DNA of 64,000 bases from Bacilli bacterium. GTDB taxonomy: Bacteria > Bacillota_I > Bacilli_A > RFN20 > CAG-826. The position numbers and the translations under genes are program-made. How positions within the stretch are numbered: the first letter of the stretch is position 1; each line of letters starts with the position of its first letter. This document shows positions 1-34,824 of the stretch, piece by piece. The stretch is from contig JAFUEZ010000008.1 in assembly GCA_017470115.1 (NCBI GenBank), positions 104-64,103 on the forward strand, in the 5' to 3' direction. The notes below the pieces were generated by a model. It was not told the origin of the DNA, ran no database searches, and worked only from the letters and a program-made list of their open reading frames with translations.

Positions 1-1939
1 ACATCTTTATAAGATTTATGATAATGGCACTAAAGCCGTAAATGATTTTAATTTAGAAATTGGTGAAAATGAGTTCATCGTTTTCGTTGGTCCTTCTGGA
101 TGCGGAAAATCGACAACTTTAAGAATGATTGCTGGACTTGAAGATATTACAGCAGGAGATTTTTATATTGATGGAATATTAGCTAATAATTTAGAACCAA
201 AAGATAGAGACATGGCAATGGTTTTCCAGAATTATGCTTTATATCCTCACATGAGCGTTTATGAGAATATGGCATTTGGTTTAAGAATTAAACATGTTCC
301 TAAGGATGAAATTGATTCACGTATCAAAGATGCAGCAAAAATTTTAGATATTGAGAATCAACTTGCTAAAAAACCTAAAGAAATGAGTGGAGGTCAAAAA
401 CAACGTGTTGCTTTAGGTAGAGCAATCGTTAGAAAACCAAAAGTATTCTTACTTGATGAACCATTAAGTAATCTTGATGCAAAACTAAGAAGTTCCATGC
501 GTAGCGAAATTACACGTTTACATAATGTTCTTGGAACAACATTTATTTACGTTACCCATGATCAAATTGAAGCTATGACTATGGGAACAAAGATTGTTGT
601 TATGGAAAAAGGCGTCATTAAACAAGTTGATACACCAATGAATTTATATGATTATCCAGCAAATGAATTTGTTGCAGGATTCATTGGAACACCTCAAATG
701 AATTTTTATAAAGCAAAATTGCATCAAGAAGGAGAAGAAATTATTATTTCATCTTCATTTAAAGATGTAAGAACTAATTTGGAAGCAATTAAGCGTATCG
801 ATATCTTAAATATAATAAAAGAAAGCAATGTTGTAATTGGCGTTAGACCAGAACATATTAAGATCTGTGAAGAAAAAGATGTTAATTCAATTGAAGCTGA
901 AATTGTTGTTGTTGAAGCATTGGGTAATGAATCAAATATTATTGTCGAAACATTAAATGGACGAACAAGATTTGTAATTAGAACTCCAAGAAATGATACA
1001 TATCTTGTAGGTCAAAAAATCTTCATTTCTTTTGATTTATCTCATGTTCATATTTTCGATGAAGATACACAAAATACATTGCTTCCACGTAATCAATTAA
1101 CATCAACTTTTAAGGCAAAATTAGTTGATGACTTACATGTTGAAGTATTAGGTAAAACATTTGAAATTACTCCTTATATTAAAGAGGCATTAGGAGAGAA
1201 TAAAGAGCTTTTAGTTAGAATAAATCAATCCTCTATTAAAGAAGGAAAAACCTTCTCTTTAGATTTCGAAAGTAAAGAAAAAGTAGGAGATTTGCGGATT
1301 TATTGCTTAAAACACGCGAAAGAATATCTTTTCTATTCTTCTAGAGATTATATAGAAGGAACTGTTTTTGAGTTCGATTTAAGACTTAGCGATTTAGCTT
1401 TTTACGATTTAAAAGGTAATCTTTTACTTGATAAATTTAATCCATTAAATGAAGTTGATGGTGCTCTTGAAAAGGCAAGAAAAGAGTTACCTGTTTTATC
1501 AAAATCTTTAATTGAAGAAGAAGTTTATGAAGAGCTCAAGAAGAATAATTTTATTGGAAAAGGCGGCAAAAAACTTAAAGCAAAAATAAAGAAGATTAAT
1601 GTATTTAATTATAAGATTTTTGAAAAAACTGTTGAGCCAATCAATAATCACATAATTAAAATATATTCTCTTTTAGGCAAGCGTTTCGCTGAACATCACA
1701 TTAAATTTATTATCGATGCAAATAAGATAAATATATCTGAAGAAGGTATGTTTGGAGGAATAGTTAGCAAAATTTTAGATTACATCGATGAAAAATATTA
1801 CTTTGTTCAAGTCGATAATAAAGAAATCTTAATTAATGCTAAAGAAACGAGTTTTAAGGAAGGTGAAACAATTAAATTTGATCTCATTAATAATGAAATC
1901 GGATTAATTGATACTGATTTTGGAGTGAGAATTATCTAA
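1..1939 (+). CDS. Sugar ABC transporter ATP-binding protein (MalK/MsmX-like), 5'-partial, with an extra ~240-aa C-terminal extension
   Basis: The frame is open from position 2 and reads ...VFVGPSGCGKSTTLRMIAGLE (Walker A) upstream of the listed ATG. LSGGQKQRVALGRA signature, Walker B FLLDEPLSNLD, H-loop. A canonical MalK regulatory/TOBE region is followed by ~240 further residues ending in a second TOBE-like segment. Confidence 0.9.
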   Translation, partial: HLYKIYDNGTKAVNDFNLEIGENEFIVFVGPSGCGKSTTLRMIAGLEDITAGDFYIDGILANNLEPKDRDMAMVFQNYALYPHMSVYENMAFGLRIKHVPKDEIDSRIKDAAKILDIENQLAKKPKEMSGGQKQRVALGRAIVRKPKVFLLDEPLSNLDAKLRSSMRSEITRLHNVLGTTFIYVTHDQIEAMTMGTKIVVMEKGVIKQVDTPMNLYDYPANEFVAGFIGTPQMNFYKAKLHQEGEEIIISSSFKDVRTNLEAIKRIDILNIIKESNVVIGVRPEHIKICEEKDVNSIEAEIVVVEALGNESNIIVETLNGRTRFVIRTPRNDTYLVGQKIFISFDLSHVHIFDEDTQNTLLPRNQLTSTFKAKLVDDLHVEVLGKTFEITPYIKEALGENKELLVRINQSSIKEGKTFSLDFESKEKVGDLRIYCLKHAKEYLFYSSRDYIEGTVFEFDLRLSDLAFYDLKGNLLLDKFNPLNEVDGALEKARKELPVLSKSLIEEEVYEELKKNNFIGKGGKKLKAKIKKINVFNYKIFEKTVEPINNHIIKIYSLLGKRFAEHHIKFIIDANKINISEEGMFGGIVSKILDYIDEKYYFVQVDNKEILINAKETSFKEGETIKFDLINNEIGLIDTDFGVRII

Positions 1940-2955
1940 TGTCAAAAATTACTATTAAAGACATAGCTAGAGAAAGCGGCGTTTCTATTACATCTGTTAG
2001 TTTTATATTAAATGGAAAGACAGATTCTGTTTCAAAAGAAACTAAAGAAAGAGTATTAGATGTTTGCAAAAAATATAATTACCAACCTAATTATTTAGCT
2101 GCTGCTTTAAAGAGCAAAAGCACGCATTTTATCGGCATTTTAGTTCCTGACATTGAAAACAGTTACTATTCTAGAATCTTAAAAATTTTAGAAGATATAT
2201 TTGATAAAAAAGGTTATTCACTTTTGATTTCTTCTTCGGGTTATGATCTTGAAAAATTCATGGGTAACATTCGTAATTTAGTCTCAAAAAGTATCGACTA
2301 TTGTATTGTAATTCCTCCATCAAGTTTCCAAGAACAAAATAAAGAAGAACTAGCAAGATTAAGTGAACACATAAATGTAAGTTTTGTAATTTTTGATAGA
2401 AAAATTAATTATTGCAATTGTCCTGTGATTGTTAATGATGATATTCAAGGAGGATATTTAGCAACCAATTATTTGATCAAAAAAGGTCATAAAAAAATTT
2501 ATTGTATTACTGGTTCAAGATTAGTTTCATCTTCAATTGATAGATTAACAGGCTATAAAAAAGCACTTGAAGAAAATAACATTAAATATGATGAAAGTTT
2601 GATTTATGAAGGTGATTATAAATATGCAGATGCACTTGATATTGCATCAAAAATCTTAAAAAAAGATAAGAACTGCAGCGTTTTTGCCTTTAATGACCTT
2701 ATGGCATATGCTGTTTATAAGGTTGCAAATGAATTAGGTCTTAAGATTGGAAAAGATGTTTCTGTTGTTGGATTTGATGATAATAATTTCTCAAATTTAA
2801 TTTATCCAGGTTTAACAACCATTAGACAAAATGTTCAAAAACTTTGTGAAGCTGTTGCTGAGGAACTCTTTTTAGAAGATTGCTCAGCAAGAACCATCAC
2901 AATTGAACCAGAACTAATTGAAAGAGGAAGTGTTAATGATTCCACTATTAAGTAA
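1939..2955 (+). CDS. LacI-family transcriptional regulator
   Basis: N-terminal HTH KDIARESGVSITSVSFILNG. Periplasmic-binding-fold body with the sugar-binding core typical of LacI/GalR. Start overlaps the upstream stop (taATG). Confidence 0.9.
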   Translation: MSKITIKDIARESGVSITSVSFILNGKTDSVSKETKERVLDVCKKYNYQPNYLAAALKSKSTHFIGILVPDIENSYYSRILKILEDIFDKKGYSLLISSSGYDLEKFMGNIRNLVSKSIDYCIVIPPSSFQEQNKEELARLSEHINVSFVIFDRKINYCNCPVIVNDDIQGGYLATNYLIKKGHKKIYCITGSRLVSSSIDRLTGYKKALEENNIKYDESLIYEGDYKYADALDIASKILKKDKNCSVFAFNDLMAYAVYKVANELGLKIGKDVSVVGFDDNNFSNLIYPGLTTIRQNVQKLCEAVAEELFLEDCSARTITIEPELIERGSVNDSTIK

Positions 2956-3928
2956 GAAGAAAATAAATCCTTATCAAGCTGCTTTAAGTGAGATTTCTCC
3001 TCTTGCAGCTAGACATAAGAAGAAGAAAATAACTCGTAGTAATATCGAGCTTCTTGTCATGGTTTCGCTTGGAATCATCTTTATTGCTGTTTTTGCTTAT
3101 CTTCCTATGTTTGGTCTTATTCTTGCTTTTAAGAGCGGTGATGGTTATTTAAACATAATGGATGCTATCTTCAAGAGTCAATGGGCAGGATTTGACAATT
3201 TTGCAGCTTTCTTTGAAGATCCAGATTTTAAAGATGTCATTTTAAATACAATTGGACTTAATACTCTTCAACTTTGTATTAACTTCCCACTTCCTATTAT
3301 ATTTGCAATTCTTCTTAGCGAATTACCTTGGAAGAGAATTAGAAAAGTTATCCAAGTTATTACTTATTTCCCATATTTCCTTTCTTGGATTATTTATGGT
3401 GGTATTATTCTTGCTCTTATTAATAGTGATGGAATTGTAAATACTATCCTTATTAATTTAGGAATTGTCGATGAAGCGGTTAATTTTGGTGAAGCACAAT
3501 ATTTCTGGGCAACAATCATTATCACATCTCTTTTAAAAGGAATGGGATGGGGCTCAATAATTTATGTTGCTGCAATTGCAGGAATTGATCCTCAACTTTA
3601 TGAAGCAGCAGATATGGATGGAGCTACAAGATGGCATAGAATTATCCATATTACAGTTCCTTCAATTGCACCAACTATAGTTTTATTCTTTATTCTTTCA
3701 GTAAGTGGAATTCTAAATAATGGTTTTGATCATATTTGGACATTCCAAAATCAAATTAACTTAGCTCGAAGCGAAGTTTTAGACACGTTTATTTATAAAT
3801 ATGGTGTTGTTAATCTTCAATATTCATATACTACAGCAGCAGGTTTCTTTAAATCTGTTGTTGCTATCGTTTTACTTGGTGTTGGCAACTTTATAGCTAA
3901 AAAGACAACAGGAAATGGTGTTTTCTAA
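2936..3928 (+). CDS. Carbohydrate ABC transporter permease (CUT1, LplB/YtcP-like)
   Basis: Six or more transmembrane segments. EAA-like loop EAADMDGATRWHRIIHITVPSIAPT. The ATG at 2936 is preceded by RBS AGAGGAAG, so it is preferred over the TTG at 2918. The start overlaps the LacI 3' end. Confidence 0.85.
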   Translation: MIPLLSKKKINPYQAALSEISPLAARHKKKKITRSNIELLVMVSLGIIFIAVFAYLPMFGLILAFKSGDGYLNIMDAIFKSQWAGFDNFAAFFEDPDFKDVILNTIGLNTLQLCINFPLPIIFAILLSELPWKRIRKVIQVITYFPYFLSWIIYGGIILALINSDGIVNTILINLGIVDEAVNFGEAQYFWATIIITSLLKGMGWGSIIYVAAIAGIDPQLYEAADMDGATRWHRIIHITVPSIAPTIVLFFILSVSGILNNGFDHIWTFQNQINLARSEVLDTFIYKYGVVNLQYSYTTAAGFFKSVVAIVLLGVGNFIAKKTTGNGVF

Positions 3929-3930
3929 TT

Positions 3931-4854
3931 ATGGTAGTCAAGAAAGTATATAAGAAAAAACAATTAATGATTGGAAGTAGTGGCAGAAAACAAAAGAAGC
4001 ATATCTTCGATTGGATAAATGTCATCATTCTTCTTATTTTTGCTGGAATTAGTGTCTATCCATTATTTTATGTTTTAGCTGGTTCATTTTCTGAAGGTGC
4101 TGACTATATTAATGGTGGAATATGGCTCTTCCCAAGAGTTTGGTCTACTGAAAATTATCAAGTTGTTTTAAACGATGCAAGACTTTGGAAAGCATATGGT
4201 ATCACGATTTTAAGAACAGTAGTTGGAACTGTTACGGCTTTAATTTATACAGCAGTTGTTGCTTATGCAATGAGTAGACCATCTTTAATTGGTAAACCAT
4301 TAATTTATAGATTCTTTATCTTCACAATGTTTTTTGGAGGAGGACTGATTCCTTATTTCTGGGTTATTAATTTACTTGGATTATTTGATAATTTCATGGT
4401 TTATATCATTCCTGGATTATTCTCGGTTTATAACATGCTCGTATTTGTTAATTTCTTTAAAACAATTCCAGAAGAAATTCATGAATCAGCGGTAATGGAT
4501 GGGGCAAGCGAATTTAAGATTCTATTTAGAATCATTTTGCCTCTTTCAGGTCCAGTTGTTTCTACAGTTGCTCTTTGGATTGCTGTAAGTCATTGGAATT
4601 CATTCTTTGACACTATGATTTATACATCAAGCGAGAATCTATGGACACTTCAATATTATTTAATGAAAGTTATTAATGAATCATCTATGCCTGCAGCTGG
4701 CGTATCTTTGCCTTATGAATTACTTCAAAAAGTAGCTCCAGAAACAGTCTCTTTAGCAGCAATTATTATTTCAGTTATTCCAATTTTTGTTTTATATCCA
4801 TTAATTTTAAAAACACTTACAAAAGGTGTTGTTATTGGAAGCCTTAAAGGATAG
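3931..4854 (+). CDS. Carbohydrate ABC transporter permease (CUT1, LplC-like)
   Basis: Polytopic membrane protein. EAA motif ESAVMDGASEFKILFRIILPLSGP. Adjacent to the partner permease. Confidence 0.85.
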   Translation: MVVKKVYKKKQLMIGSSGRKQKKHIFDWINVIILLIFAGISVYPLFYVLAGSFSEGADYINGGIWLFPRVWSTENYQVVLNDARLWKAYGITILRTVVGTVTALIYTAVVAYAMSRPSLIGKPLIYRFFIFTMFFGGGLIPYFWVINLLGLFDNFMVYIIPGLFSVYNMLVFVNFFKTIPEEIHESAVMDGASEFKILFRIILPLSGPVVSTVALWIAVSHWNSFFDTMIYTSSENLWTLQYYLMKVINESSMPAAGVSLPYELLQKVAPETVSLAAIIISVIPIFVLYPLILKTLTKGVVIGSLKG

Positions 4855-4863
4855 GAGGGTAAT

Positions 4864-6618
4864 ATGAAAAATTTAGTTAAACGAATGTTATTAATGCTTG
4901 TATTCTCTACATCTTTAATTTCTTGTGGAAGCGAAACTGGTGGAAATGGTAGTGCAGATCTTCCTGATTTTCCTGCTACTCCAGGGGATAAAGATTCTTG
5001 GGAATATTTAAAAGATGAAACAGGTAAAGTTGAAGAATGGGACTTAGAATGGTACGTTAACGATTCAACTTTTGCTTGGAATAGTTATGGAAGCGATAGA
5101 GTTAGCCAAGTTTTAAAAGAAAAAACTGGTGCAAATATTAAATTTACAGTACCAGTAACTGATGATGGGCAAAAGCTCTCAACTCTTATTTCTGGAAATA
5201 AACTTCCTGACATAATTTCAGTTCAATGTTGGTATTCACAATGTTCACAACTTGCTAGCCAAGGTTATTTATATGCTCTTGATGATTTAATTGAGAAATG
5301 GGCTCCATCATTTAAAGCAAAAGAACAAGAAGATATTTGGTCTTATTTTACTGAAGGTGATGGGAAGTGTTATGGAGTTCCAAATTTTGCATATTCAACA
5401 AAATATGTTAACGATACAGATAAAATGGAACCTAATGGCTGCTTGATGGTTAGAGAAGATTGGTACAATGAAGCACTTGCTGAAGGCTATGATATGACAA
5501 GTGCTACATCTTTCATTAATGGATGTAAATTCATCCAAAGTAAGCATACAGATTGTATTCCTTTTCAACTTGATGCATTTACCAATGAAGGAAACGAATC
5601 AATTGATTGGTTAAGTCAATATTTCTGTGCACCATTTGAAGATAAAGATGGAAATTATTTAGACACAAGAACAACTGAAAGATATCAAGAAATGTTAGAG
5701 TTTTTAAATAATTGTCATAAACAAGGAATTATTAAATCAGCAAACTATTCAGATAAAGCAAGTGCAATTAGAACAAATATTTCTAGAGGTAAATGTTTTG
5801 TTACAGCAGTAACTCCTCAAGATTATCAAACAGCTTATTTGAATGCTTATGGATCAAATATTAATTATGTTCCTTTGATTTTAAGAAATAAGGATAATCA
5901 AGCTCCAATTTTACAAGATATTTCTGGTAATGGTTATTTATTAACGATGATTACTAAAAACTGTAAAAATCCACATAAAGCAATTAAATTACTTGAATAT
6001 TTATATAGTGAAGAAGGACAAAGATTAGTTGCTTTTGGAGTTGAAGGAGAATCATATCAATGGGATAATCCTGAACATACTTCACTTTCTTGGACTGATA
6101 GATATGTAAGTGGCGTAAATGGAAATACAGAAGATCAAGCTTGGATCAATACACTTGGTTTATTTAGCATGACTCTTCAAATGAATCTTGCTTATATCAA
6201 TAAATATAAGCCATTAAATGGAAGAAAAGACACTGATATTTATATTGATAATATGAAGCGACCATTAACTCCATATTCATATAATTTCAAGCCTACTTTC
6301 TTAAAACACGATACTTCAAAACCAAATTATTTCCAAACAATTACAAATTACAACAAAATTAAAACAAAATGGGCAGAAGCTCTTGTTGAAATCATAAGAA
6401 GTAATAATTGGAAAGAAACTTATGATAACGCTATTAATTATGCAAAACGACAAAAATTAGATGATGTTATTAGTTTTTATAGTGAATCATATAAGAACAC
6501 TAAAAAATTACTTAATGTTGAATTTGGCTATCCTCAAAATAGACCAGATTATCATGAACCAACTTGGAAAGGTCCTCATGGAGATTTCTCATATTGGAGA
6601 AGTAAAACTCACGAATAA
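4864..6618 (+). CDS. Extracellular solute-binding lipoprotein of sugar ABC transporter (large LplA-like SBP, 584 aa)
   Basis: Signal peptide with lipobox LISCG. RBS AGGAGGG. Size and position match the substrate-binding partner of the LplBC permeases. Confidence 0.75.
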   Translation: MKNLVKRMLLMLVFSTSLISCGSETGGNGSADLPDFPATPGDKDSWEYLKDETGKVEEWDLEWYVNDSTFAWNSYGSDRVSQVLKEKTGANIKFTVPVTDDGQKLSTLISGNKLPDIISVQCWYSQCSQLASQGYLYALDDLIEKWAPSFKAKEQEDIWSYFTEGDGKCYGVPNFAYSTKYVNDTDKMEPNGCLMVREDWYNEALAEGYDMTSATSFINGCKFIQSKHTDCIPFQLDAFTNEGNESIDWLSQYFCAPFEDKDGNYLDTRTTERYQEMLEFLNNCHKQGIIKSANYSDKASAIRTNISRGKCFVTAVTPQDYQTAYLNAYGSNINYVPLILRNKDNQAPILQDISGNGYLLTMITKNCKNPHKAIKLLEYLYSEEGQRLVAFGVEGESYQWDNPEHTSLSWTDRYVSGVNGNTEDQAWINTLGLFSMTLQMNLAYINKYKPLNGRKDTDIYIDNMKRPLTPYSYNFKPTFLKHDTSKPNYFQTITNYNKIKTKWAEALVEIIRSNNWKETYDNAINYAKRQKLDDVISFYSESYKNTKKLLNVEFGYPQNRPDYHEPTWKGPHGDFSYWRSKTHE

Positions 6619-6629
6619 GAGGTAAAAGT

Positions 6630-7550
6630 ATGCTAGAAGAAAAAAGAAAAGTCATTTTAGATACTGATATTGGTGATGATATAGACGATTCTTTTGCTTT
6701 GCTTTTGCTACTTGAAAGTAAGAAGTTTGATGTGCTTGGAGTAACAACTGTATTTAGAAATTCAAAAAAACGTGCCATGATGGCTAAAGAAATCATTGAT
6801 TCACTTGGCTATGATGTGAAAGTTTATCCTGGAAGAGATGAACCATTACGTGTAAAGGTTGATAAATTAATTTCTCCTGAAATAAAAGAAAGAGAAAAAC
6901 TAGATGAAGAAGGAAAATATTTAATTCCTCAATGGGACGAATCGATGCGAAATCACAAAATTGAAGATAAAGATGCGGTCGATTTCATCATTGAAATGGT
7001 TCATAAATATCCTGGAGAAGTTACTTTAATTCCTATTGGTCCTATGACTAATATTGCCTCAGCTATAACTAAAGACCCTAGCATTATTCCTTTAATTAAA
7101 GAAATTCGTTTTATGGGTGCTGGATTAGATTTATCTTTTGTTGAATGGAATGTGTTTTGTGATCCTGATGCTGCAAAAATTGTTTTAAGCAGTGGAGTTA
7201 AAAAGATTGAAGCGATAACTTTTAATGTTACTAGTAAAACTGAAATGTCTAATGAACTTATTGAAAGTCTAAAAAATAGTAACGCTAAACCTATTAAACT
7301 AATTTATAAAGCTATGCTTAAATGGTTTGATCACTATAAATTTAGTGTCCCAGTAATGCATGATCCACTTTGCGTTGTCTCTTTGCTTAAAGAAGACGTC
7401 GTTGAATGTAAGTTATTAAAGATGGATGTTGACTTATCTCAAGATGGTTACACATTCATCAATGATAAATGCAACAACATAATTAATGTTGCGATTTCTG
7501 TGAAAACAGATGACTTTTACAGTATTTTCAAGGAAATATTGAATGTTTGA
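6630..7550 (+). CDS. Inosine-uridine-preferring nucleoside hydrolase family protein
   Basis: N-terminal DTDIGDDIDDSFALLLLL matches the IUNH DXDXXXDD Ca2+-binding fingerprint. 306 aa, no signal peptide. RBS AGAGG. Confidence 0.8.
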   Translation: MLEEKRKVILDTDIGDDIDDSFALLLLLESKKFDVLGVTTVFRNSKKRAMMAKEIIDSLGYDVKVYPGRDEPLRVKVDKLISPEIKEREKLDEEGKYLIPQWDESMRNHKIEDKDAVDFIIEMVHKYPGEVTLIPIGPMTNIASAITKDPSIIPLIKEIRFMGAGLDLSFVEWNVFCDPDAAKIVLSSGVKKIEAITFNVTSKTEMSNELIESLKNSNAKPIKLIYKAMLKWFDHYKFSVPVMHDPLCVVSLLKEDVVECKLLKMDVDLSQDGYTFINDKCNNIINVAISVKTDDFYSIFKEILNV

Positions 7551-7583
7551 TTTTTTACATTTTCACTATAAGGAGGAAAGAAG

Positions 7584-10115
7584 ATGAAGAAAATTGTTAA
7601 TTGCAGTTTATGTCTTGCCGCATCAGCGCTACTGACCTCTATTGCACCTTCTGTAAATCGCCTTGCAGAAGATGCTTGGAAAAGCGGTGACTTATATGGA
7701 GCTGCAAAAATTACCTGCACTAAAGCAAGAGATGCAGATGTTGGTAACGTTACAGAAATTAATTTAAATGGTAGCGGAAATGGCAGTTTAGCTGGAAATG
7801 GTATCTATTTCAGAATCAAAAACTATACTGCAGTTGATACACCACTTACTGTTAAACTTAATTCGACAAATGGCGCTGGTATTGCTCCAAAAACAAATGT
7901 TAAGCAAACCTATTTCGATGCAGATGGCAATCCAGTTGATGGAATAGCCGCTCGTAGTTGGGGAAATTATATGATGTTACCAGCCAGTTTTGATGGTTTC
8001 ATCTATATGAATTATGCAGAACAAATGACAAAGATTTTTGGCGATGAAGATTTTAATCCATCAAGCATCTGGAGAATTTATATCGAATATAGTGGTAGTT
8101 ATGATTCATATGCAAGTTTTGCAATTGGCGATATTTACACCGACCAAGTTCAATCACTTGATACATCAGCAATAACAGAAGAAAACTTCTCAAATTATTT
8201 CATAAATACTGCCAGTGAGTTCCAATCTGTAACTCAAAATCCTAGAGCAGAAGAGTATGTTCCAGAAGGCGACTTAAAAGGCGGTGTTAAATGTGAATTA
8301 ACCGGTTATGGTGGATTCATGGTTAAATTTGGTGCTGAAATTAATTTAAGCGATGGATTATATGTTCGTATGAAAAATGATTTAGATAGAGAGATCTATC
8401 CTATGATCCATGTTGCTAGTGATTGGTTCACATATAGAGTTGTAACTGCTCAAAATCAAATAATTAATCTTTATAATAATGATGGCACTTTTAAGTCAAC
8501 TGTTACTGTTAATGAGTGGGGATATTTTGCTTTACCTGCTAGTTTTGATGGTTTCATTGGCTTTAAAGATTACACTGGTTTTAAAAATGACTGGGGTGAA
8601 GGCTTCGATCCTGCAAAAGTTGTAGCAGTCTATTTTGAAGCTGATTCAGTTAATTTCTCAGTTGGTGATATTTTCTCTCCTACAGTAAAAGCTTTTGATG
8701 GTTCAGAAAAATATGAAACCGACTTTGCTAATTTCACTGAAACATGGACACCAGATGTAATTAAGTTGACTCAACTTGAAGGTTATAAAGAACCAGAAGT
8801 AGTTTTATTTGATTACACACAAGTTACTTATGGTGGCTCACTTGAAGGTGGTGTCACAATTAAAGCTTCAAAAAATGAAGACTCTTCAGTATTTTCAAGC
8901 GCACTAATAAATTTTGCTGAGAAGATTGATTTAAGTGCTGGAGAAGCAGTTGCTATTAACTTTAAAGGTGTTGGCTCATATGCTTTCCAAATGGAATTTA
9001 TTGATGGAAATGGAGCAAAAGCAATTCTTCCTGCAGCAAGTGATAGTGCCGTAAAACCTATTTGGATGATTAAAGATGGCGTTGCTACAGCTATGAACCA
9101 TACAACTGGTGATCCAAATACAATTCATACTGTTGAAGGTGAAGGCGTTATAGTTTTAGAAAAAGGATTCTTAGCTTTAAGTAGTGCAGAATTTGATTGG
9201 AGTAAGATCGCTCAAATTAAAGTTAACGTTCATACTTTCTATGATAATGGCATTAACATTACACTTGGTGATATTGGAACAGTTAAACAAGATGGGCTTA
9301 TTCATACAGTTGTTTATAAAGCAAGTGAAGTTACAGCATGGTCAAGCGTTTATGAGGCTGGAGATGAATTTATTAAAGTTTCTAAATTCTTTACACCTAA
9401 ACCATCTCAATGGATTGGTGATGTTAAATTAATCGATTCACTCAATTATAGAAGTGATGAAGAATTAAAAGAAAACGTTACATATGATATTGGCGACAAT
9501 GCATGTTCATATAAAAAAGAAAATGATGGCATGTTCGTCCATATTGGACCATATGAAACTGGACATACTTATGGCAATTATATGTGTCTAGGTATGTTTG
9601 ATAAAGGCGTAACAACCGATAGAAAAGTTGCTTATAAAGAAGTTGAAGGCAAAAAAGAATACGCAAAAGGTATTACTTTCTACGCTGAAAATAGATCAGT
9701 TAAAGAAATTGGTCTAACATTACAATTTGATGAAAAGATTCCTGGTAAAGGACATACTGAAAGATGGTGTGTCACTGGATATCCTGCAATGTATTATGCT
9801 TGGGATGTTGAAACAAATGCTGAATATATGTTCTATGCAAAATCAGACCAAGTTCAAATCCCTGTTGGATTCAAAGGTTATATTAGAGTTCCATTTACAT
9901 CATATTCAGTACCTGCATGGAATGCTGGATTAGAAGGCGTTGATGAAGTTCTTGATTTAGATAATTTCAGTGGAAACTTCTTCTTAACAAGTGATAATAC
10001 AAGATTCGAAGATCTTGAATACTTCATTAAAAACGTTGGTCTATACTTCAATGAAACTGCTAAAGGTAGTGTTTTCAATAGTGAACATACTATCAAAGCA
10101 AACATGGGTCTTTAA
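7584..10115 (+). CDS. Secreted 843-aa protein with three tandem ~250-aa repeats; probable carbohydrate-binding or glycan-active protein of unknown family
   Basis: Type I signal peptide, no lipobox. Internal repeats are marked by LPASFDGFI (occurs twice) and by recurring xxGDIx module endings (AIGDIY, SVGDIF, TLGDIG). Strong RBS AAGGAGG. Confidence 0.55.
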   Translation: MKKIVNCSLCLAASALLTSIAPSVNRLAEDAWKSGDLYGAAKITCTKARDADVGNVTEINLNGSGNGSLAGNGIYFRIKNYTAVDTPLTVKLNSTNGAGIAPKTNVKQTYFDADGNPVDGIAARSWGNYMMLPASFDGFIYMNYAEQMTKIFGDEDFNPSSIWRIYIEYSGSYDSYASFAIGDIYTDQVQSLDTSAITEENFSNYFINTASEFQSVTQNPRAEEYVPEGDLKGGVKCELTGYGGFMVKFGAEINLSDGLYVRMKNDLDREIYPMIHVASDWFTYRVVTAQNQIINLYNNDGTFKSTVTVNEWGYFALPASFDGFIGFKDYTGFKNDWGEGFDPAKVVAVYFEADSVNFSVGDIFSPTVKAFDGSEKYETDFANFTETWTPDVIKLTQLEGYKEPEVVLFDYTQVTYGGSLEGGVTIKASKNEDSSVFSSALINFAEKIDLSAGEAVAINFKGVGSYAFQMEFIDGNGAKAILPAASDSAVKPIWMIKDGVATAMNHTTGDPNTIHTVEGEGVIVLEKGFLALSSAEFDWSKIAQIKVNVHTFYDNGINITLGDIGTVKQDGLIHTVVYKASEVTAWSSVYEAGDEFIKVSKFFTPKPSQWIGDVKLIDSLNYRSDEELKENVTYDIGDNACSYKKENDGMFVHIGPYETGHTYGNYMCLGMFDKGVTTDRKVAYKEVEGKKEYAKGITFYAENRSVKEIGLTLQFDEKIPGKGHTERWCVTGYPAMYYAWDVETNAEYMFYAKSDQVQIPVGFKGYIRVPFTSYSVPAWNAGLEGVDEVLDLDNFSGNFFLTSDNTRFEDLEYFIKNVGLYFNETAKGSVFNSEHTIKANMGL

Positions 10116-10128
10116 GGAGGGCTAAACA

Positions 10129-11307
10129 ATGAGAAAAACAAATATTTTATTAGCAGCATGTGGTTTATTACTTTCTAGTTGTTTACTTTGTGCTTGTGGC
10201 TCAAATGAACCAGTAAATCCTGATAATCCTGATAATCCTGATAACCCAGATAACCCAGATACACCTGATACAACTGAAGTTCCTATTTATGAACAAGGCG
10301 ATAAAAAAGCTGTTAATGGTGCAGGATTACTCTTCTTTGAAACGATGGGTTTCAATACAAAAGATGCTTCTATTTTTGAAGAAAACAATGAAAGATATAT
10401 TGTTTATGCTGGTCAAGAAGAAGCAAAAGGTGCTCAAGTATTTGCCGCACGTAAAGGCACATTAAAAGATGGTGCTTGGGTATATGGTGAAAAGAAAGTA
10501 ATCTTAAAGGGTGCAACTGGGGATAGTGCATGGGATAAATTCATTTATCAACCATCAGTTGTAAAAGGTACATTCAAATACAATACAAAAGATTACAAGT
10601 ATTTAATGGCCTACCAAGGAAATAGTGACGGAAGTAACTTCAATAATAATATTGGTTTAGCCGTTTCAAATGATATTCTTGGTTCATGGGAAAGAGTTGG
10701 TACAGCTCCACTAATTAAAAACCCTGAAATTTATGAAGCTTCATATGGATTTGGTTCACCAATTCTTTTAAACGTCGATCAAAAAGGTTCACTTTTAATC
10801 GCTTATTCATTTGGTGAAACTTTACTTTCAGGTGAAAGAGTTAAATCACTAAACGCTCTTGATTTAAATTCACCAGTTCTTGAAAGTGGTTATGCTGAAT
10901 TACCAACTGCAGGATTACTCGGTCGTGATGATGGAATTATTACAAATGCTGGATTAGCATTAGGCAAAAATAATGATTTCTATATTGCAAACGATGGAAT
11001 GACTTCAAGTAACGCACCTGGTAATGCTACATCATTTGAAGTTGCAAAAGCAGGTTCAGGTCTAATTAGTGATGTTTCAACAACATGGGCACAAATTAAA
11101 AAAGTAACTGGAAATGATACAATCGATCCAAAAAATACTGAATCCTTAGGTTGGGATGAATTATGTTCTGCAGATTTTGTAACTGATGCTTATGGAAGAG
11201 TTGATGATACAAAAGAAAAACTCGAAATAGTTTATACTTCATTTAATGAAGGTGTAGGCGATGCAGCTTATAGTGGACAACTTTGTTCAATCGAGGTCGC
11301 AAAATAA
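10129..11307 (+). CDS. Lipoprotein with Pro/Asp-rich stalk and beta-propeller glycoside-hydrolase-like body (paralog 1)
   Basis: Lipobox LLCACG. (PDN)4(PDT)2 linker. Shares YQPSVVKGTFKYNTKDYKYLMAYQG-type blocks with the other two paralogs. The DPS/GPW-type signatures are reminiscent of the GH43/GH32 propeller clan. Family assignment is tentative. Confidence 0.5.
   Translation: MRKTNILLAACGLLLSSCLLCACGSNEPVNPDNPDNPDNPDNPDTPDTTEVPIYEQGDKKAVNGAGLLFFETMGFNTKDASIFEENNERYIVYAGQEEAKGAQVFAARKGTLKDGAWVYGEKKVILKGATGDSAWDKFIYQPSVVKGTFKYNTKDYKYLMAYQGNSDGSNFNNNIGLAVSNDILGSWERVGTAPLIKNPEIYEASYGFGSPILLNVDQKGSLLIAYSFGETLLSGERVKSLNALDLNSPVLESGYAELPTAGLLGRDDGIITNAGLALGKNNDFYIANDGMTSSNAPGNATSFEVAKAGSGLISDVSTTWAQIKKVTGNDTIDPKNTESLGWDELCSADFVTDAYGRVDDTKEKLEIVYTSFNEGVGDAAYSGQLCSIEVAK
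10219..10272 (+). repeat. Six tandem 9-nt units (cctgataat-like) encoding the (PDN)4(PDT)2 linker
   Basis: Tandem units were read directly in the sequence at 10219-10272. Confidence 0.8.
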
Positions 11308-12551
11308 TGAAAAATAAATACTTAGCTTTAATAAGTTTAGTATTTTTAACTGCTTGTACATCTGGAGGTGGTTCAACATCTCCAGATGAACCAACTGATC
11401 CAGACACTCCTTACGTTGATCCAGATACTCCTCAAGAAAAACCTGTATCTTATATTCCTGATGTAGGGGAAGTTAGGTTACTTTTTTCAACCGGAGAAGC
11501 TGGAAAAACTCAAATTTATAATTATTGTCCTTCAATATTTATTGAAAATAATGAAGAGCATGTTTATTTTTGTACAAACAAAGATGAAGGAAATGTTACA
11601 GATTATGTTGGATATCGAAAAGGCACAATTTCTGACAATAAAATCAATTTCCCTCTTCAAAGTGATTTTGTTTTAAGTCATGGAACTAGTTCGACTAGCT
11701 GGGATTATCGTCACGCTTGCGATCCTAGTGTCATTAAAGGTGAATTTAAATTTCATGGGGAAACTTATAATTATTTAATGGCATATTTAGGATGTGTTCC
11801 TAGTGATTGTACTTTAAATGAAACAGGTATTGCTGTTAGTAAATCTCCACAAGGTCCATGGATTAAATGTGATTTTAAAGAAGATGGTGTTACCAAAATT
11901 AATCCAATAGTTCCTTATAAAGATTTCCAAGTTGGTGAAAATAATTGGGGAACAGGTCAACCTTCATTATTCTCAGTTGATAAAAAAGGAAGAGTAATTT
12001 TACTTACGACAGTTGGCGCTCAAAATGGCACATTTACCAATGCAAGAGAATATGATTTTTCTGATATTGATAATTTTAAACTCATTAGAGAGAAGAATAA
12101 TCTCCCAATAGATGGTATTAAGGGAACAAGAACTGGAGCCTCATTTATTAATAATGCTGACTTTGGTTATGATTATCAAAAAAGAAGAGTTATTTTAGCT
12201 AAACCAAGGCAATTCTTTGGAACAGATGGAAAATCTCCAGATTTTATTGCTGATACGATAGATGTTTATTATATCGACGATACTGAAGGTAGTGGAGTTG
12301 GTGATATTCTTTTTGCAGGCAATAATACTGTTAAAATCTGGAAATCAATCGGTTCAATAGATTCTAAACTAACTGGATTTTTAAGAAACCATAATTGTGG
12401 ATTGATTACTGATGCTTATGGTGGAATTGATTCAAGTCTTAATTTAGGAGTCGCATTCACCAGAAGTGATGAAGCTAGCGGAAATAACTGGACTTATCTT
12501 TCAACTTATAGAATTTATGCTACTGCATTTAATTTCCCTAAAAATTATTAA
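11307..12551 (+). CDS. Lipoprotein, beta-propeller glycoside-hydrolase-like (paralog 2)
   Basis: The ATG at 11307 overlaps the upstream stop (taATG) and has GAGG 10 nt upstream. Lipobox LTACTSGG. P/D/T-rich linker. Blocks NYCPSIFIENNEEHVYFCTN and ACDPSVIKGEFKFHGETYNYLMAYLGC are shared with the 14149 gene. Confidence 0.5.
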   Translation: MKNKYLALISLVFLTACTSGGGSTSPDEPTDPDTPYVDPDTPQEKPVSYIPDVGEVRLLFSTGEAGKTQIYNYCPSIFIENNEEHVYFCTNKDEGNVTDYVGYRKGTISDNKINFPLQSDFVLSHGTSSTSWDYRHACDPSVIKGEFKFHGETYNYLMAYLGCVPSDCTLNETGIAVSKSPQGPWIKCDFKEDGVTKINPIVPYKDFQVGENNWGTGQPSLFSVDKKGRVILLTTVGAQNGTFTNAREYDFSDIDNFKLIREKNNLPIDGIKGTRTGASFINNADFGYDYQKRRVILAKPRQFFGTDGKSPDFIADTIDVYYIDDTEGSGVGDILFAGNNTVKIWKSIGSIDSKLTGFLRNHNCGLITDAYGGIDSSLNLGVAFTRSDEASGNNWTYLSTYRIYATAFNFPKNY

Positions 12552-12573
12552 TCAATCAGTATAAAATCTATAT

Positions 12574-13278
12574 ATGGCAAAAAGTTTTGAACAAAAATTA
12601 AATAGTCCATTCTATAAATATTCAAAGAGAGTGGTTGATTTAGTAGCTTTAAATATAATTTTTATACTAATGTCAGCCCTTTCTTTGATGGTATTGTTCT
12701 TTCCAGGATTAGTAGCTTTACATACAGTCATCTTTAACATGGTGCATGAAAAAGATATTCCTCCTTATAAGACATTCTTTTTAGAAATAAAAGAAGAGTG
12801 GAGTTTTTGTTGGAGACTTGAAGTCTTAGGCATGAGTGTTTTACTTATTACTGGGACGCTAATATATTTTGATTTAGTTTACATCAGAGCAACTGAATAC
12901 AATTTAATAGCATGGTTTTCGTTGGTTTTTGTAATTTCAGTCTTTATTATATTATTTATTGTTTATGAAAATTTGATTGTCTTTAATAATTATTTTAAAG
13001 ATGACACATTTAAAATGATGATTAAAAAATCTGCATTAATTTCTTTAAAAAGGAAGTGGATGTCAGTATTAAATTTAATTATCTTTATCGTATTTGGAGT
13101 AACTCTTTTCATCTTTCCTTATATAATTCCTTTTATCTCTTTTACAGCATATATTTATATCGTAGAAACTTTATCTAGAAAGAGATTTACAGAAATAGCT
13201 GTTGAAGAAAACGAGAGAGCTCTAATGGCGGAAAATTTATTTCTTCCAATGGTAATTGAGGAGCAAGATTCAAAATGA
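12574..13278 (+). CDS. YesL/DUF624-like polytopic membrane protein
   Basis: N-terminus FYKYSKRVVDLVALNIIFILMSALSL followed by several transmembrane helices. This matches the YesL-type proteins that commonly accompany LplABC-type transporters in Firmicutes. No obvious SD. Confidence 0.5.
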   Translation: MAKSFEQKLNSPFYKYSKRVVDLVALNIIFILMSALSLMVLFFPGLVALHTVIFNMVHEKDIPPYKTFFLEIKEEWSFCWRLEVLGMSVLLITGTLIYFDLVYIRATEYNLIAWFSLVFVISVFIILFIVYENLIVFNNYFKDDTFKMMIKKSALISLKRKWMSVLNLIIFIVFGVTLFIFPYIIPFISFTAYIYIVETLSRKRFTEIAVEENERALMAENLFLPMVIEEQDSK

Positions 13279-14156
13279 AAAATATCTTAGTAGTTGGTTC
13301 GCTTAATATGGACTACACAATTTATGTAGATGAATTTCCTCTTGAAGGGGAAACAATTTATGGTGTAAATAGATATATTCAACCAGGAGGTAAAGGAGAA
13401 AATCAAGCTGTTGCTTTATCAAAATCTAAACTTGTTAATTCTCATTTACTTGGTGCTATTGGAAGCGATAAAGATGGTAGTGAAATCGCAAATGTTTTAA
13501 AGCAAAATAAGGTAATTTCTCATTTAGTTATTAAAGAGAATGCAGAAACTGGAAACGCCACAATTACGGTAAACGGGAAAAGTGAAAATGAGATAATAAT
13601 TATTGAAGGAGCAAATGGAAAACTTTTGCCAAACGATATTGATATATCTTTAATTGAAAAAGTTGATGCTGTTTTGCTTCAAAACGAGATTCCAGAAGAA
13701 ACAAATGCTTATGTTATTAAAAAAGCTAAAGAATTAGGTAAAGTGGTTTTTTATAACCCAGCTCCTTATAGAAAAGTTAGCGATGACATTTTAGCTAAAG
13801 TAGATTATTTATTACCTAATCGAGTTGAATTTAAAAAATTGACTGGAGAAGATGATTTAGCTATAGGCGCAAGAAAATTATTAGATTTAGGAGTTAAAAA
13901 TATTCTTGTTACTTTAGGGACTGAAGGATCAATTCTTTTTAATAAGAATGAGAAAATAAAAGTCAATGCTTATAAAGTTAATGCAATTGATACTGTTGCA
14001 GCTGGAGACACTTTTATTGGTTATTTTGTTGCTAATTTAATTAATGGGAAAAGTGCAAAAGAAGCCATGGATAGAGCGTCAAAAGCAAGCTCAATTTGCG
14101 TTTCAAGAAAAGGAAGTTTAATATCAATTCCTTTAGGAGAAGAACTCGATGATTAG
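13275..14156 (+). CDS. rbsK: Ribokinase (PfkB family)
   Basis: GG motif region GGKGENQAVA. C-terminal AAGDTFIGYF anion hole and catalytic Asp motif. 293 aa. RBS GAGGAG. Confidence 0.85.
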   Translation: MKNILVVGSLNMDYTIYVDEFPLEGETIYGVNRYIQPGGKGENQAVALSKSKLVNSHLLGAIGSDKDGSEIANVLKQNKVISHLVIKENAETGNATITVNGKSENEIIIIEGANGKLLPNDIDISLIEKVDAVLLQNEIPEETNAYVIKKAKELGKVVFYNPAPYRKVSDDILAKVDYLLPNRVEFKKLTGEDDLAIGARKLLDLGVKNILVTLGTEGSILFNKNEKIKVNAYKVNAIDTVAAGDTFIGYFVANLINGKSAKEAMDRASKASSICVSRKGSLISIPLGEELDD

Positions 14157-15390
14157 TAAAAAACCTTGCAAAACCCTTATATTTTCCTTGCTTTTTGCTG
14201 GTTTCTTATCGCTTTCTAGTTGTGGAGGACCTTCAAATAACAACAATAAGGAAGATGAAACTATGGCAAAAGTTAAAGGTGATGTAATGCATGATTTTTT
14301 ACCTGAAGTAGGTGAAGTAAAATTACTTTTTAAACATTCAAGTGAAGAAACCGTTGGTGATGATGGAGAAGATTATTTTTATAATTATTGTCCTTCAATT
14401 TTTATAGAAAATAATAAAGAACATATTTATTATTGCACTAACAATAATCGGGGAACTGTAATTGATCATATCGGGTATAGAAGTGCAGAAATGGAAAACA
14501 ATATTTTAATCTATTCAGATGAAGATATTGTTTTATCACCAACTGCAGATACATGGGACCAAACGCATGTCTGCGATCCAACAGTTATAAAAGGTGAATT
14601 CAAATATAATAATGAAGATTATCCTTATTTGATGGCTTATCTTGGTTGCGTACCATTAAATTGTAAATTAAATGAAACTGGAATTGCTGTTGCTAAGTCT
14701 CCTAATGGTCCATGGATTAAATGTAATGGACTTAAAGTTGATGGAGAAACAAAGATTAATCCAATTGTTCCTTATAGTGACTTTCATTGTACAGAAACTA
14801 ACTGGGGAACTGGTCAAGCTTGTTTGATGAGTGTAGATAAAAAAGGTAGGGTTTTACTTTTTACAACAGTAAGTGCCCCAGAAGGTGGCTTTACTGATGT
14901 TAGAGAATACGATTTTTCTAATATCAACGATTATAAACTCATTAGAGAAACAAAATTATTTAAAGATGGCGGAACACAATATGGTACAAACTGGATTGGA
15001 AACGCTGAATATTGTTTTGATTCTAAAAATAAGAAATTTATCATGTCGAAACCAAGAGGTGGATATGGAAAAGATGGAGAATATCCAGATTTTATAGCCG
15101 ACACAATCGATGTATATTATGTTGATGCATCAAGTTATGAAAATCCTTTTGATATTTTCTTTGATGAAGCAAGAAGCGAGAAGTGGAAATACATCAATTC
15201 TATAAATAAAGAATTATCTGGATATCCTAGAAATCATAATAATGGTATGGTGACTGATGAATATCAACATTTATATAGAGAAGGAAAAATCGGAGTTGCA
15301 TTTACATCAAGTCAATATGGCACGATATCAGCTATGACTTATTTAAAAACTTATAGAATATTTTTAACAACATTTGATTTACCTTATTAA
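14149..15390 (+). CDS. Lipoprotein, beta-propeller glycoside-hydrolase-like (paralog 3)
   Basis: Lipobox LSSCGG. Blocks NYCPSIFIENNKEHIYYCTN, VCDPTVIKGEFKYNNEDYPYLMAYLGC and SPNGPWIKC are shared with paralog 2. Confidence 0.5.
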   Translation: MISKKPCKTLIFSLLFAGFLSLSSCGGPSNNNNKEDETMAKVKGDVMHDFLPEVGEVKLLFKHSSEETVGDDGEDYFYNYCPSIFIENNKEHIYYCTNNNRGTVIDHIGYRSAEMENNILIYSDEDIVLSPTADTWDQTHVCDPTVIKGEFKYNNEDYPYLMAYLGCVPLNCKLNETGIAVAKSPNGPWIKCNGLKVDGETKINPIVPYSDFHCTETNWGTGQACLMSVDKKGRVLLFTTVSAPEGGFTDVREYDFSNINDYKLIRETKLFKDGGTQYGTNWIGNAEYCFDSKNKKFIMSKPRGGYGKDGEYPDFIADTIDVYYVDASSYENPFDIFFDEARSEKWKYINSINKELSGYPRNHNNGMVTDEYQHLYREGKIGVAFTSSQYGTISAMTYLKTYRIFLTTFDLPY

Positions 15391-15540: not shown

Positions 15541-15885
15541 ATGCCTAAATATTGTTCAAATTGTGGTGCAGAATTACATGAAAACGATTCATTCTGTGCA
15601 AGTTGTGGTGCAAAGATTGATAATAATCAAATATATATGGGAGATAGTAAGAAAAAAGAGGAAGGCAAGAAAACTCTAAGAACGGTTGCTTTAGTTTTTA
15701 TGATTATTAATACAGTAATTTTTGGTTTTGCACTTATTCCTTTAGCATGGATGATTCCTATGTGTATTCATGTAAATGAAAAACTTAAAACTGGTGAAGA
15801 AATAAGTATTGGCTTTAAAATTTGTACATTACTTTTCTGCAGTACGATTGCAGGAATTCTTTTACTTGTTGATGATTTAAATTAA
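15541..15885 (+). CDS. Zinc-ribbon membrane protein (114 aa)
   Basis: N-terminal CxxC-x14-CxxC (CSNCGAELHENDSFCASCGAKI) followed by two or three hydrophobic helices. RBS AAAGGAGGG. Confidence 0.6.
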   Translation: MPKYCSNCGAELHENDSFCASCGAKIDNNQIYMGDSKKKEEGKKTLRTVALVFMIINTVIFGFALIPLAWMIPMCIHVNEKLKTGEEISIGFKICTLLFCSTIAGILLLVDDLN

Positions 15886-15910
15886 TTTAAAATTTATCAA
15901 ATTTAAAGAA

Positions 15911-15936
15911 AAAAGCCTCGTTTTAGAGGCTTTTTG
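15911..15936. terminator. Bidirectional intrinsic terminator between convergent genes
   Basis: Hairpin AAGCCTC-gtttta-GAGGCTT flanked by an A-run and a T-run. Confidence 0.7.
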
Positions 15937-17647: not shown

Positions 17648-17662
17648 AAAACTAAACTTATC

Positions 17663-17696
17663 GAGCAATGAGCAGTTTTGTTCATTGCTTTTTTTA
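17663..17696 (+). terminator. Intrinsic terminator between the LRR lipoprotein gene and the GH3 gene (cassette 1)
   Basis: Hairpin GAGCAATGA-loop-TCATTGCTT followed by TTTTTTT. Confidence 0.65.
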
Positions 17697-17711
17697 TAGG
17701 AGAGATAATAA

Positions 17712-25271: not shown

Positions 25272-25284
25272 TCTAAAATTGTTT

Positions 25285-25326
25285 CGGCCCTTAGTTCGTC
25301 TAAGGGCCTCTTTATATTTAAAGAGG
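25285..25326 (+). promoter_or_regulatory. Structured leader: terminator hairpin overlapping an SD-sequestering hairpin upstream of the GH3 gene (cassette 2)
   Basis: The first hairpin, GGCCCTTAG-ttcgtc-CTAAGGGCC plus a T-rich tract, shares its last two nt with a second hairpin, CCTCTTTA-tatt-TAAAGAGG. The second hairpin contains the GAGG of the ribosome-binding site. Confidence 0.5.
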
Positions 25327-25333
25327 GCAAATT

Positions 25334-33206: not shown

Positions 33207-33224
33207 AAACTAACTTTAAAATTT

Positions 33225-33250
33225 ATATGTCCCCCTATTTTGGGGGACAT
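33225..33250 (+). terminator. Hairpin (attenuator or partial terminator) between SBP and ATPase genes
   Basis: ATGTCCCCC-tatttt-GGGGGACAT followed by ATTTT. Confidence 0.5.
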
Positions 33251-33267
33251 ATTTTAGAGGAAATAGT

Positions 33268-34821: not shown

Positions 34822-34824
34822 AAG

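Follow-up and report, generated by a model that had tools for sequence, protein, structure and literature searches.

The locus and its central association

Which substrate is harvested by an operon that combines an oligosaccharide-type importer with a nucleoside hydrolase-fold enzyme, a ribokinase, and three propeller lipoproteins? Such a locus occupies the first 15,390 positions of the 64,000-nt stretch of contig JAFUEZ010000008.1 analyzed here (the window), and its host is an uncultured Bacilli bacterium that probably inhabits a ruminant or other animal gut. With moderate confidence, we favor the reading that a ribofuranose-containing glycan or glycoside is captured and trimmed at the cell surface, imported by a carbohydrate uptake transporter 1 (CUT1) system, de-ribosylated inside the cell by a hydrolase of the inosine-uridine nucleoside hydrolase (IUNH) fold, and passed on to ribokinase. 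The most useful new fact is that the propeller family, which we call PROP, is associated with IUNH and ribokinase genes across very different loci.

The 13 genes of positions 1-15390 all lie on the plus strand, with spacings of -38 to +33 nt; the window has a GC content of ~30%, and its left edge cuts the locus. Every gene that an earlier sequence-only reading had named was recovered in this co-directional, closely packed arrangement by open reading frame (ORF) calls and family matches. Export signals were found on the three propeller lipoproteins, on an 843-amino acid (aa) protein, and on the solute-binding protein of the importer, and none on IUNH or ribokinase. The gene order is repeated in relatives, so the locus is a conserved, tightly packed operon and not a chance juxtaposition. 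At least six metagenomic loci are syntenic (L003, L004/L005, L006, L010, L012, and L014), running from the ATPase, the LacI regulator, two permeases, and the binding protein through the large exported protein, LipoA, LipoB, the YesL-like protein, and ribokinase to LipoC; where IUNH is seen, it follows the binding protein or stands at the operon end.

A contig search with a single-sequence query returned 2 short loci, and a metagenome scan with the PROP alignment added 80 more, down to 28% identity. In the census of 85 PROP loci, each ORF was labeled from its BLASTP matches to the proteins of the window and to those proteins of locus L072 that carry a Pfam annotation. An IUNH homologue was present in 34 and a ribokinase in 31 of the 38 loci of at least 12 kb, and at least one of the two was present in all of them (38/38). 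PROP stood immediately beside an IUNH homologue in 42 of the 50 IUNH-containing loci. Many of the human-gut loci are near-duplicates; dereplication at 80% PROP identity left 27 groups of at least 8 kb, with IUNH in 18, ribokinase in 16, either in 22, and both in 12, which are underestimates given the crude ORF calling. By a rough estimate, ribokinase and IUNH genes occur in only a few copies per genome, so that chance co-occurrence within 20 kb should amount to a few percent. The gene-neighborhood comparison that the sequence-only reading had proposed as a check thus backs its link between propellers and ribose metabolism.

The rus polysaccharide utilization locus (PUL) of Bacteroides thetaiotaomicron (Bt) offers a point of reference. 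The study by Glowacki et al. reportedly appeared in Cell Host & Microbe in 2020. In its preprint, Bt rus (BT2802-BT2809) comprises RusR, two ribokinases, SusC/D, a surface lipoprotein labeled "GH*" that has no assigned family (RusGH), an IUNH (RusNH), and a permease (10.1101/574913). RusNH hydrolyzes p-nitrophenyl (pNP)-beta-D-ribofuranoside and, weakly, nucleosides, and RusGH displays a weak Ca-dependent pNP-ribofuranosidase activity and nothing more (10.1101/574913). Across the Bacteroidetes, rus forms an enzyme-diversified family of 70 configurations in which LacI is the second commonest regulator type, and capsules or exopolysaccharides that contain ribose are put forward as possible targets (10.1101/574913).

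Among the PROP loci, Bacteroidota PULs share the order divergent ~510-540-aa gene, ribokinase, sugar permease (RusT-like), SusC, SusD, BACON protein, PROP, nucleoside hydrolase (NH)-like protein, NH, and PROP, the divergent gene being RusR-like in size and position; examples are L072 (NCBI entries from B. clarus and Barnesiella) and L086 (Porphyromonadaceae sp. NP-X). ABC-type (ATP-binding cassette) loci are found at other GC contents as well. At 49-50% GC, L026 carries LacI, permeases, a binding protein, a relative of the 843-aa protein, three PROPs, and NH, and L058 carries an LplABC-like system, a signal-less PROP, an NH-like protein, ribokinase, and NH. At 64-69% GC, L040 holds LacI, a binding protein, permeases, IUNH, an NH-like protein, and a secreted PROP, and L056 is similar.

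Two side observations concern these loci. The PROP encoded at L058:9938-10969 lacks a signal peptide, which predicts a cytoplasmic location, and a second PROP of that locus (1073-2512, minus strand) has a signal, suggesting that the family is not confined to surface action. In the Bacteroides PULs, PROP is accompanied by the NH-like protein, whose L072 copy matches IU_nuc_hydro weakly. The NH-like proteins at L040:5836-6912 and L072:10939-12129 are 46% identical between a 64%-GC ABC-type locus and Bacteroides, an identity that hints at horizontal spread of the PROP/NH module.

The propeller family and its possible chemistry

The three lipoproteins are encoded at 10129-11307 (LipoA), 11307-12551 (LipoB), and 14149-15390 (LipoC, lipobox LSLSSC/GG), each on the plus strand and each with a lipobox. 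LipoB is identical to the NCBI entry "hypothetical protein IJ186_03320 [Bacilli bacterium]"; the ORF listing starts it at a TTG at 11283 and the 414-aa NCBI protein at a Met at 11307, and the latter is likely the true start. LipoB and LipoC share 50% identity, and LipoA, at ~24% to LipoB, is a divergent member. None of the three has a match above threshold in Pfam, NCBIfam, or the PDB sequences. The Pfam GH43 (glycoside hydrolase family 43) model (PF04616, cutoff 32.2 bits) gave LipoA 23.3 bits (4.7e-5) and LipoC 18.1 bits (1.8e-3), and LipoB had no GH43 match in Pfam even at E<=5. When the family profile was compared with PDB sequences, GH117 and GH43 were the only matches, with non-significant E-values.

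An AlphaFold2 (AF2) model of LipoB, built from a 34-sequence alignment (predicted local distance difference test score (pLDDT) 86.9, predicted template modeling score (pTM) 0.84), is a five-bladed beta-propeller. Its best Foldseek matches were GH62 and GH43 arabinofuranosidases and xylosidases, followed by GH137 (BT_0996), GH130, GH117, sialidases, and GH32. These similarities are low (probability 1.00, E 1e-8 to 1e-6, TM 0.47/0.61, identity 10-15%). The top 50 structural matches comprised glycosidases, phosphorylases, and sialidases and included no nucleases and no apyrases. The earlier description of three beta-propeller-like lipoproteins is borne out by the LipoB fold and the lipoboxes, and it is refined to two close paralogues plus the divergent LipoA.

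In an exhaustive hidden Markov model search, the PROP family comprised 681 clusters (50% identity) at E<=1e-3 and 217 at E<=1e-30. Multidomain members include P0321, P0329, and P0325, two of which carry a type I dockerin and one of which, at 2024 aa, joins a true GH43 domain and a GDSL/SGNH esterase to a C-terminal PROP. These fusions suggest that PROP belongs with extracellular glycan-degrading machinery.

The dockerin and GH43/GDSL esterase fusions, the weak GH43 matches of LipoA and LipoC, and the best fold matches to GH62 and GH43 arabinofuranosidases would also suit a locus for plant hemicellulose or pectin side chains (arabinofuranosides, apiosides). The propellers would then be divergent GH43-like furanosidases, with ribokinase and IUNH recruited or carried as passengers. 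LplABC-type systems take up pectin and hemicellulose oligosaccharides in Bacillus, which is in keeping with such a role. The PROP-IUNH-ribokinase linkage is, however, too consistent for passengers (38/38 and 42/50), the operon contains no arabinose, xylose, or apiose catabolic genes, its kinase scores as a ribokinase (283 bits) rather than as another PfkB type, and the GH43 blade-I catalytic Asp is absent. We regard this plant-polymer explanation as unlikely.

Conservation was evaluated in a 42-sequence non-redundant family alignment, using LipoB numbering. The conserved residues are Y79, Y81, P83, S84, C97, N99, D107, W140, D141, H144, C146, D147, P148, Y162, N179, K195, W222, G223, G225, Q226, N291, P319, W353, R368, N369, H370, N371, and Y409. 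Asp-141 is invariant, and Asp-107, Asp-147, His-144, and His-370 are nearly so. Judging from the predicted strand order, the conserved residues would lie on the first (innermost) strands of the blades. The blade-I motif reads Y-N-Y-[C/A]-P-S. Its position 82, which we mapped by motif and strand order to the catalytic Asp ("DP" motif) in blade I of GH43/GH32, holds Cys or Ala in 38/42 sequences and Asp in 2/42. With the blade-I Asp replaced and no Glu conserved, PROP forms a separate family within the propeller superfamily, in which GH43-type hydrolase chemistry is not assured. LipoC keeps all conserved residues except G380 (Q) and Y242, the latter being Thr in LipoB as well as in LipoC.

The same alignment bears on whether the propellers are hydrolases at all. 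They could be surface binders, or phosphorylase- or lyase-like proteins, leaving the internal IUNH as the sole cleavage step. Besides the missing blade-I Asp and conserved Glu, this is consistent with an Arg/Asn/His/Asn/Lys set that recalls GH130 phosphate sites, with the loss of conserved polar residues in LipoA, with the signal-less PROP of L058, and with one source that labels a Bacteroides homologue a "sugar-binding protein." Yet an invariant Asp-141 and the nearly invariant Asp-107, Asp-147, His-144, and His-370 on inferred innermost strands follow the usual pattern of an active site. Moreover, the two to four paralogues per locus are typical of complementary enzyme specificities, and extracellular phosphorylases would be unusual. 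We consider this non-hydrolase reading improbable and continue to favor surface trimming by LipoB and LipoC.

The 843-aa exported protein as a putative glycan binder

The largest exported protein is encoded at 7584-10115 (plus strand). Its AF2 model (pLDDT 88) is all-beta and consists of four tandem beta-sandwich domains. Of these, d1 and d2 are clear homologues (hhalign probability 100%), d3 is a marginal relative (69%), and d4 is unrelated in sequence, so the triple repeat that had been described for this protein is approximate at best. Foldseek returned laminin-G/LNS, galectin, and carbohydrate-binding module (CBM) folds, namely CBM11, CBM22, and CBM28, and no enzyme fold was found among the matches. 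Sequence matches in Pfam, NCBIfam, and the PDB were likewise absent, and the homologue search yielded 30 homologues. The protein takes the place of the BACON protein of the Bacteroidota PULs. On the strength of the model, it is probably a non-catalytic glycan binder, a conclusion that departs from the sequence-only reading, in which this protein attacked the substrate.

Importer, regulator, and accessory membrane protein

The opening gene (1-1939, plus strand) encodes a MalK/UgpC/MsmK-type ABC ATPase (ABC_tran 2.5e-31, OB_MalK, TOBE_2; 456 bits against the NCBIfam UgpC subfamily). The window edge truncates its 5' end, placing ~6-10 N-terminal residues outside, and the visible N terminus reads HLYKIYDNG...GPSGCGKST. 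Beyond the TOBE/OB domains, the protein carries a C-terminal extension of ~285 aa (window 1082-1939) for which no Pfam match was found. The long form (648-669 aa) is also the first gene in L003 and L004.

The LacI-family repressor that follows (1939-2955, plus strand; LacI helix-turn-helix 7e-15, Peripla_BP_3 2.3e-26) is of the RbsR/PurR/CytR type. Its best NCBIfam matches were RbsR (NF047341, 238 bits, below the cutoff), PurR, CytR, and E. coli RbsR, in line with the LacI control that had been envisaged for the locus. Two CUT1 permeases, LplB-like (2918-3928, BPD_transp_1 2.7e-16) and LplC-like (3931-4854, BPD_transp_1 1.9e-9), and a 584-aa LplA-like solute-binding lipoprotein (4864-6618, SBP_bac_8 3.7e-13, lipobox ...SLISC/GSE) complete the importer on the same strand. 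Permease identity is 78-96% among the syntenic loci and drops to 47-56% for L026, L028, and L058, which are distant ABC-type loci.

At 12574-13278 (plus strand) lies the gene for a MusI/YesL-like polytopic membrane protein. It scored 43.6 bits (2.8e-11) against the NCBIfam MusI_fam model, whose cutoff is 160, and had no Pfam match at E<=5, DUF624 included. The assignment thus leans on a sub-cutoff match, on size, and on operon context, and we treat the protein as MusI/YesL-like with that qualification. The gene overlaps the ribokinase start by 4 nt, a translational coupling of the two. In L012 (7552-9138) and L014 (8399-9985), the two are a single ORF of 528 aa, with residues 1-231 YesL-like and residues 234-524 ribokinase. 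This overlap and fusion suggest a membrane-tethered kinase whose phosphorylation step is coupled to the importer.

The IUNH-fold hydrolase and ribokinase

The IUNH-fold ribosyl hydrolase (6630-7550, plus strand) is predicted to be cytoplasmic. Its IU_nuc_hydro match (PF01156, 1.3e-56) spans profile positions 1-296 of 297 and scores 192.9 bits, the cutoff being 34.2; among PDB entries, YeiK/RihB comes closest (3e-28). The hydrolase retains the His-Asp pair (YeiK H239/D240), the E-x-N motif, and the ribose/Ca-binding motifs. Its N-terminal Asp cluster, DTDIGDDIDD, contains a 2-residue insertion relative to DxDxxxDD, and the base-contacting His-82 of YeiK is not conserved. Against the NCBIfam equivalogs RihA, RihB, RihC, and UriH, the protein scored 89-118 bits, with cutoffs of 382-459 bits. 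A retained His-Asp pair together with an altered Asp cluster and the loss of His-82 is compatible with a ribosyl hydrolase acting on a leaving group other than a standard base.

The kinase (13275-14156, plus strand) belongs to the PfkB family (PfkB 4e-59) and displays the GGKGENQA (GGKGxNQA) and AAGDTF motifs. It scored 283 bits against the ribokinase model TIGR02152 (cutoff 299.65), 59 bits against the fructokinase model, and at most 114 bits against non-ribokinase models. A fructan locus, which would pair a GH32-like propeller with a PfkB fructokinase, was rejected both on these kinase scores and on the ranking of GH32 below GH43 and GH62 in Foldseek.

The His-Asp and ribose-binding motifs kept by the IUNH are canonical for nucleoside hydrolases, which raises the question of whether the locus scavenges nucleosides, nucleotides, or RNA. 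The propellers and the 843-aa protein would then process extracellular nucleic-acid material (e.g. as phosphodiesterases or nucleotidases), and the nucleosides would be taken up and split by IUNH to supply ribose to the ribokinase. Salvage is something on which reduced-genome Bacilli rely, the regulator resembles RbsR, PurR, and CytR, and Arg-368, Asn-369, His-370, Asn-371, and Lys-195 of PROP could bind phosphate. Several lines of evidence point the other way. A dedicated nucleoside ABC system, consisting of a Bmp/PnrA-type binding protein, a duplicated-ABC ATPase, and BPD_transp_2 permease(s), lies 17 kb downstream at 32106-37193; the family scan covered the first (34825-36198) of its two putative permease ORFs. 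With this separate importer in place, the LplABC-like system is unlikely to serve free nucleosides, and the importer itself, of the CUT1/LplABC type and with a 584-aa binding protein, has the form typical of oligosaccharide systems. No nuclease or apyrase stands among the 50 best structural matches of PROP, its CBM-like, BACON, SusC/D, dockerin, and GH43 partners indicate glycans, and the Bt rus enzymes are dispensable on nucleosides and RNA (10.1101/574913). Nucleic-acid scavenging is accordingly a reading to which we assign a low probability, and a ribosylated glycan or glycoside remains our preferred substrate.

A proposed pathway for ribofuranoside harvest

We propose the following scheme. 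The 843-aa protein, through its four lectin/CBM-like modules, would capture a ribofuranose-containing glycan or glycoside at the cell surface. The anchored LipoB and LipoC would cut it to transportable fragments, and LipoA might help or merely bind. The LplA-like binding protein, the two CUT1 permeases, the long MalK-like ATPase, and the MusI/YesL-like protein would import these fragments, from which the predicted cytoplasmic IUNH would remove the beta-D-ribofuranosyl unit as an O- or N-ribosidase. Ribokinase, coupled to the membrane protein, would then make ribose 5-phosphate for the pentose phosphate pathway. Control of the operon would fall to the RbsR/PurR-like LacI repressor. The sequence-only reading had outlined the same course of attack outside, CUT1 uptake, and release of ribose inside. 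The topology of the export signals and the neighborhood linkage agree with that course, and the role of attacker passes from the 843-aa protein to the propellers.

A number of observations weigh against this scheme. PROP has neither the GH43/GH32 blade-I Asp nor any Glu conserved at >=85% of the 42 sequences. In LipoA, Tyr-79, Tyr-81, Asp-107, His-144, Asp-147, Gln-226, and the RNHN stretch (Arg-368, Asn-369, His-370, and Asn-371) are all replaced, and LipoA may be non-catalytic or of a different specificity. In L003, no IUNH was seen within the 15.3 kb up to the end of its contig record. Fusion to dockerin or to GH43/esterase points to the plant cell wall, of which ribose is not a known component. 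In the prototype, strains deleted for rusGH, rusNH, or both showed no phenotype on ribose, nucleosides, or RNA (10.1101/574913). A search from the B. clarus PROP gave no match named B. thetaiotaomicron in its 120 best homologues, four peptides translated from the published BT2807 primers matched no PROP, and RusGH homologues are not listed in Table S5 of the preprint (10.1101/574913). We do not assign the window propellers as RusGH (BT2807) homologues, and the literature search returned no later paper on RusGH or on ribofuranosidases.

A bolder proposal, which we offer tentatively and consider less probable than the scheme itself, is that PROP is a new glycan-active propeller family lacking the GH43 base, which would act with IUNH enzymes in a two-step harvest, found in several kinds of bacteria, of beta-D-ribofuranosyl units from unrecognized ribose glycans. 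The IUNH enzymes would then be O-ribofuranosidases working on oligosaccharides and not nucleosidases. If true, it would explain the puzzling enzyme pairs of Bacteroides rus, a system that confers a diet-dependent fitness advantage in the gut. Capsules, O-antigens, or a dietary component would be the candidate sources. Were the substrate a ribofuranose-containing capsule or O-antigen, gut bacteria would be feeding on each other's surface glycans. The locus offers simpler candidates for biochemistry, namely soluble lipoprotein ectodomains, a predicted cytoplasmic IUNH, and a lone binding protein, the ligand of which would reveal the substrate.

Operon boundaries and neighboring genes

A promoter scan returned sites that were rarer than in shuffled controls, and we place the real promoter and operator beyond the left edge of the window. 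Downstream of LipoC, a small zinc-ribbon membrane protein gene (15541-15885, plus strand, Zn_Ribbon_1 3.5e-7) precedes a bidirectional terminator-like hairpin (15910-15935) of 10 pairs followed by a T-run, the first such hairpin 3' of the operon. The transcription unit may end at this hairpin and thus take in the zinc-ribbon gene, which has no counterpart in L003, L004, or L010. The nearest genome matches were Erysipelotrichaceae and Bacillales metagenome-assembled genomes.

Further downstream, two similar modules (16919-20681 and 24699-28393) each consist of a BspA-type leucine-rich repeat lipoprotein gene followed by a large GH3 gene. The GH3 proteins (989 and 1019 aa) both have the Pfam C-terminal domain ahead of the N-terminal domain. 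Each module adjoins a LytTR regulator gene on the opposite strand (15952-16656 and 23691-24404), the latter together with a histidine kinase gene (22405-23694). A 379-aa tyrosine-phosphatase-family protein (Y_phosphatase3 1.5e-30) is encoded between the GH3 modules at 21279-22418.

Comparison with known systems

PROP shares the five-bladed fold with GH43, GH62, GH117, GH130, and GH137, along with the blade motifs W-D...C-D-P-S-V and G-x-A-x-S-x-x-P-x-G-P-W. It differs from these families in its 10-15% identity, in the lack of a Pfam match above the gathering threshold, and in the change of the blade-I Asp to Cys or Ala. Relative to clan GH-F, its own set of residues is Y79, Y81, D107, D141, H144, D147, K195, Q226, N291, and R368-N371. 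The hydrolase has the full-length IU_nuc_hydro fold, the His-Asp pair, and the ribose/Ca motifs in common with RihA, RihB (YeiK), and RihC of E. coli and with the protozoan nucleoside hydrolases (IU-NH), whereas its sub-cutoff equivalog scores, 2-residue insertion, missing His-82, and position in an oligosaccharide-type uptake operon set it apart.

The importer resembles the LplABC/YesOPQ-type CUT1 systems of Bacillus and MusEFGK2-MusI of Corynebacterium glutamicum. A large lipoprotein binding protein, two BPD_transp_1 permeases, a MalK/MsmK-type ATPase, and an accessory polytopic membrane protein matching MusI_fam are common to all. Here, in contrast, the ATPase gene lies within the operon and its product is ~285 aa longer than usual. 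The accessory protein, unlike MusI, falls far under the MusI cutoff and is coupled to ribokinase, to which it is fused in relatives.

The closest parallel is Bacteroides rus. As in the rus class, ribokinase, transporter, and regulator stand in one operon, with an IUNH and surface GH-like lipoproteins. Homologues of the window propellers lie next to IUNH genes in the rus-architecture PULs L072 and L086. The differences are equally clear. Bt rus uses SusC/SusD and the RusT permease, whereas the window locus uses a CUT1 ABC system with a MusI/YesL-like protein. The IUNH is predicted to be cytoplasmic here and is periplasmic in Bt; the BACON protein of the PULs contrasts with a protein of four CBM-like domains; and there is one ribokinase instead of two. 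No SusC/D or RusT homologues were found in the window, so that, with an ABC system in their stead, the locus is analogous to a rus PUL rather than a strict PUL.

The sequence-only reading had held that this gene combination is not a described utilization locus, a view that has to be revised in light of the Bacteroides rus PULs as its direct analogue (10.1101/574913). Firmicutes, Gram-positive, and ABC versions have 0 occurrences in the rus preprint (10.1101/574913). Bacteroidota PULs, low-GC Bacilli ABC operons, and high-GC ABC operons alike unite PROP with IUNH and ribokinase, which points to a conserved enzymatic core and extends the concept beyond the Bacteroidota. The locus is best seen as a version of the known rus concept that is of the ABC type and centers on an uncharacterized propeller family.

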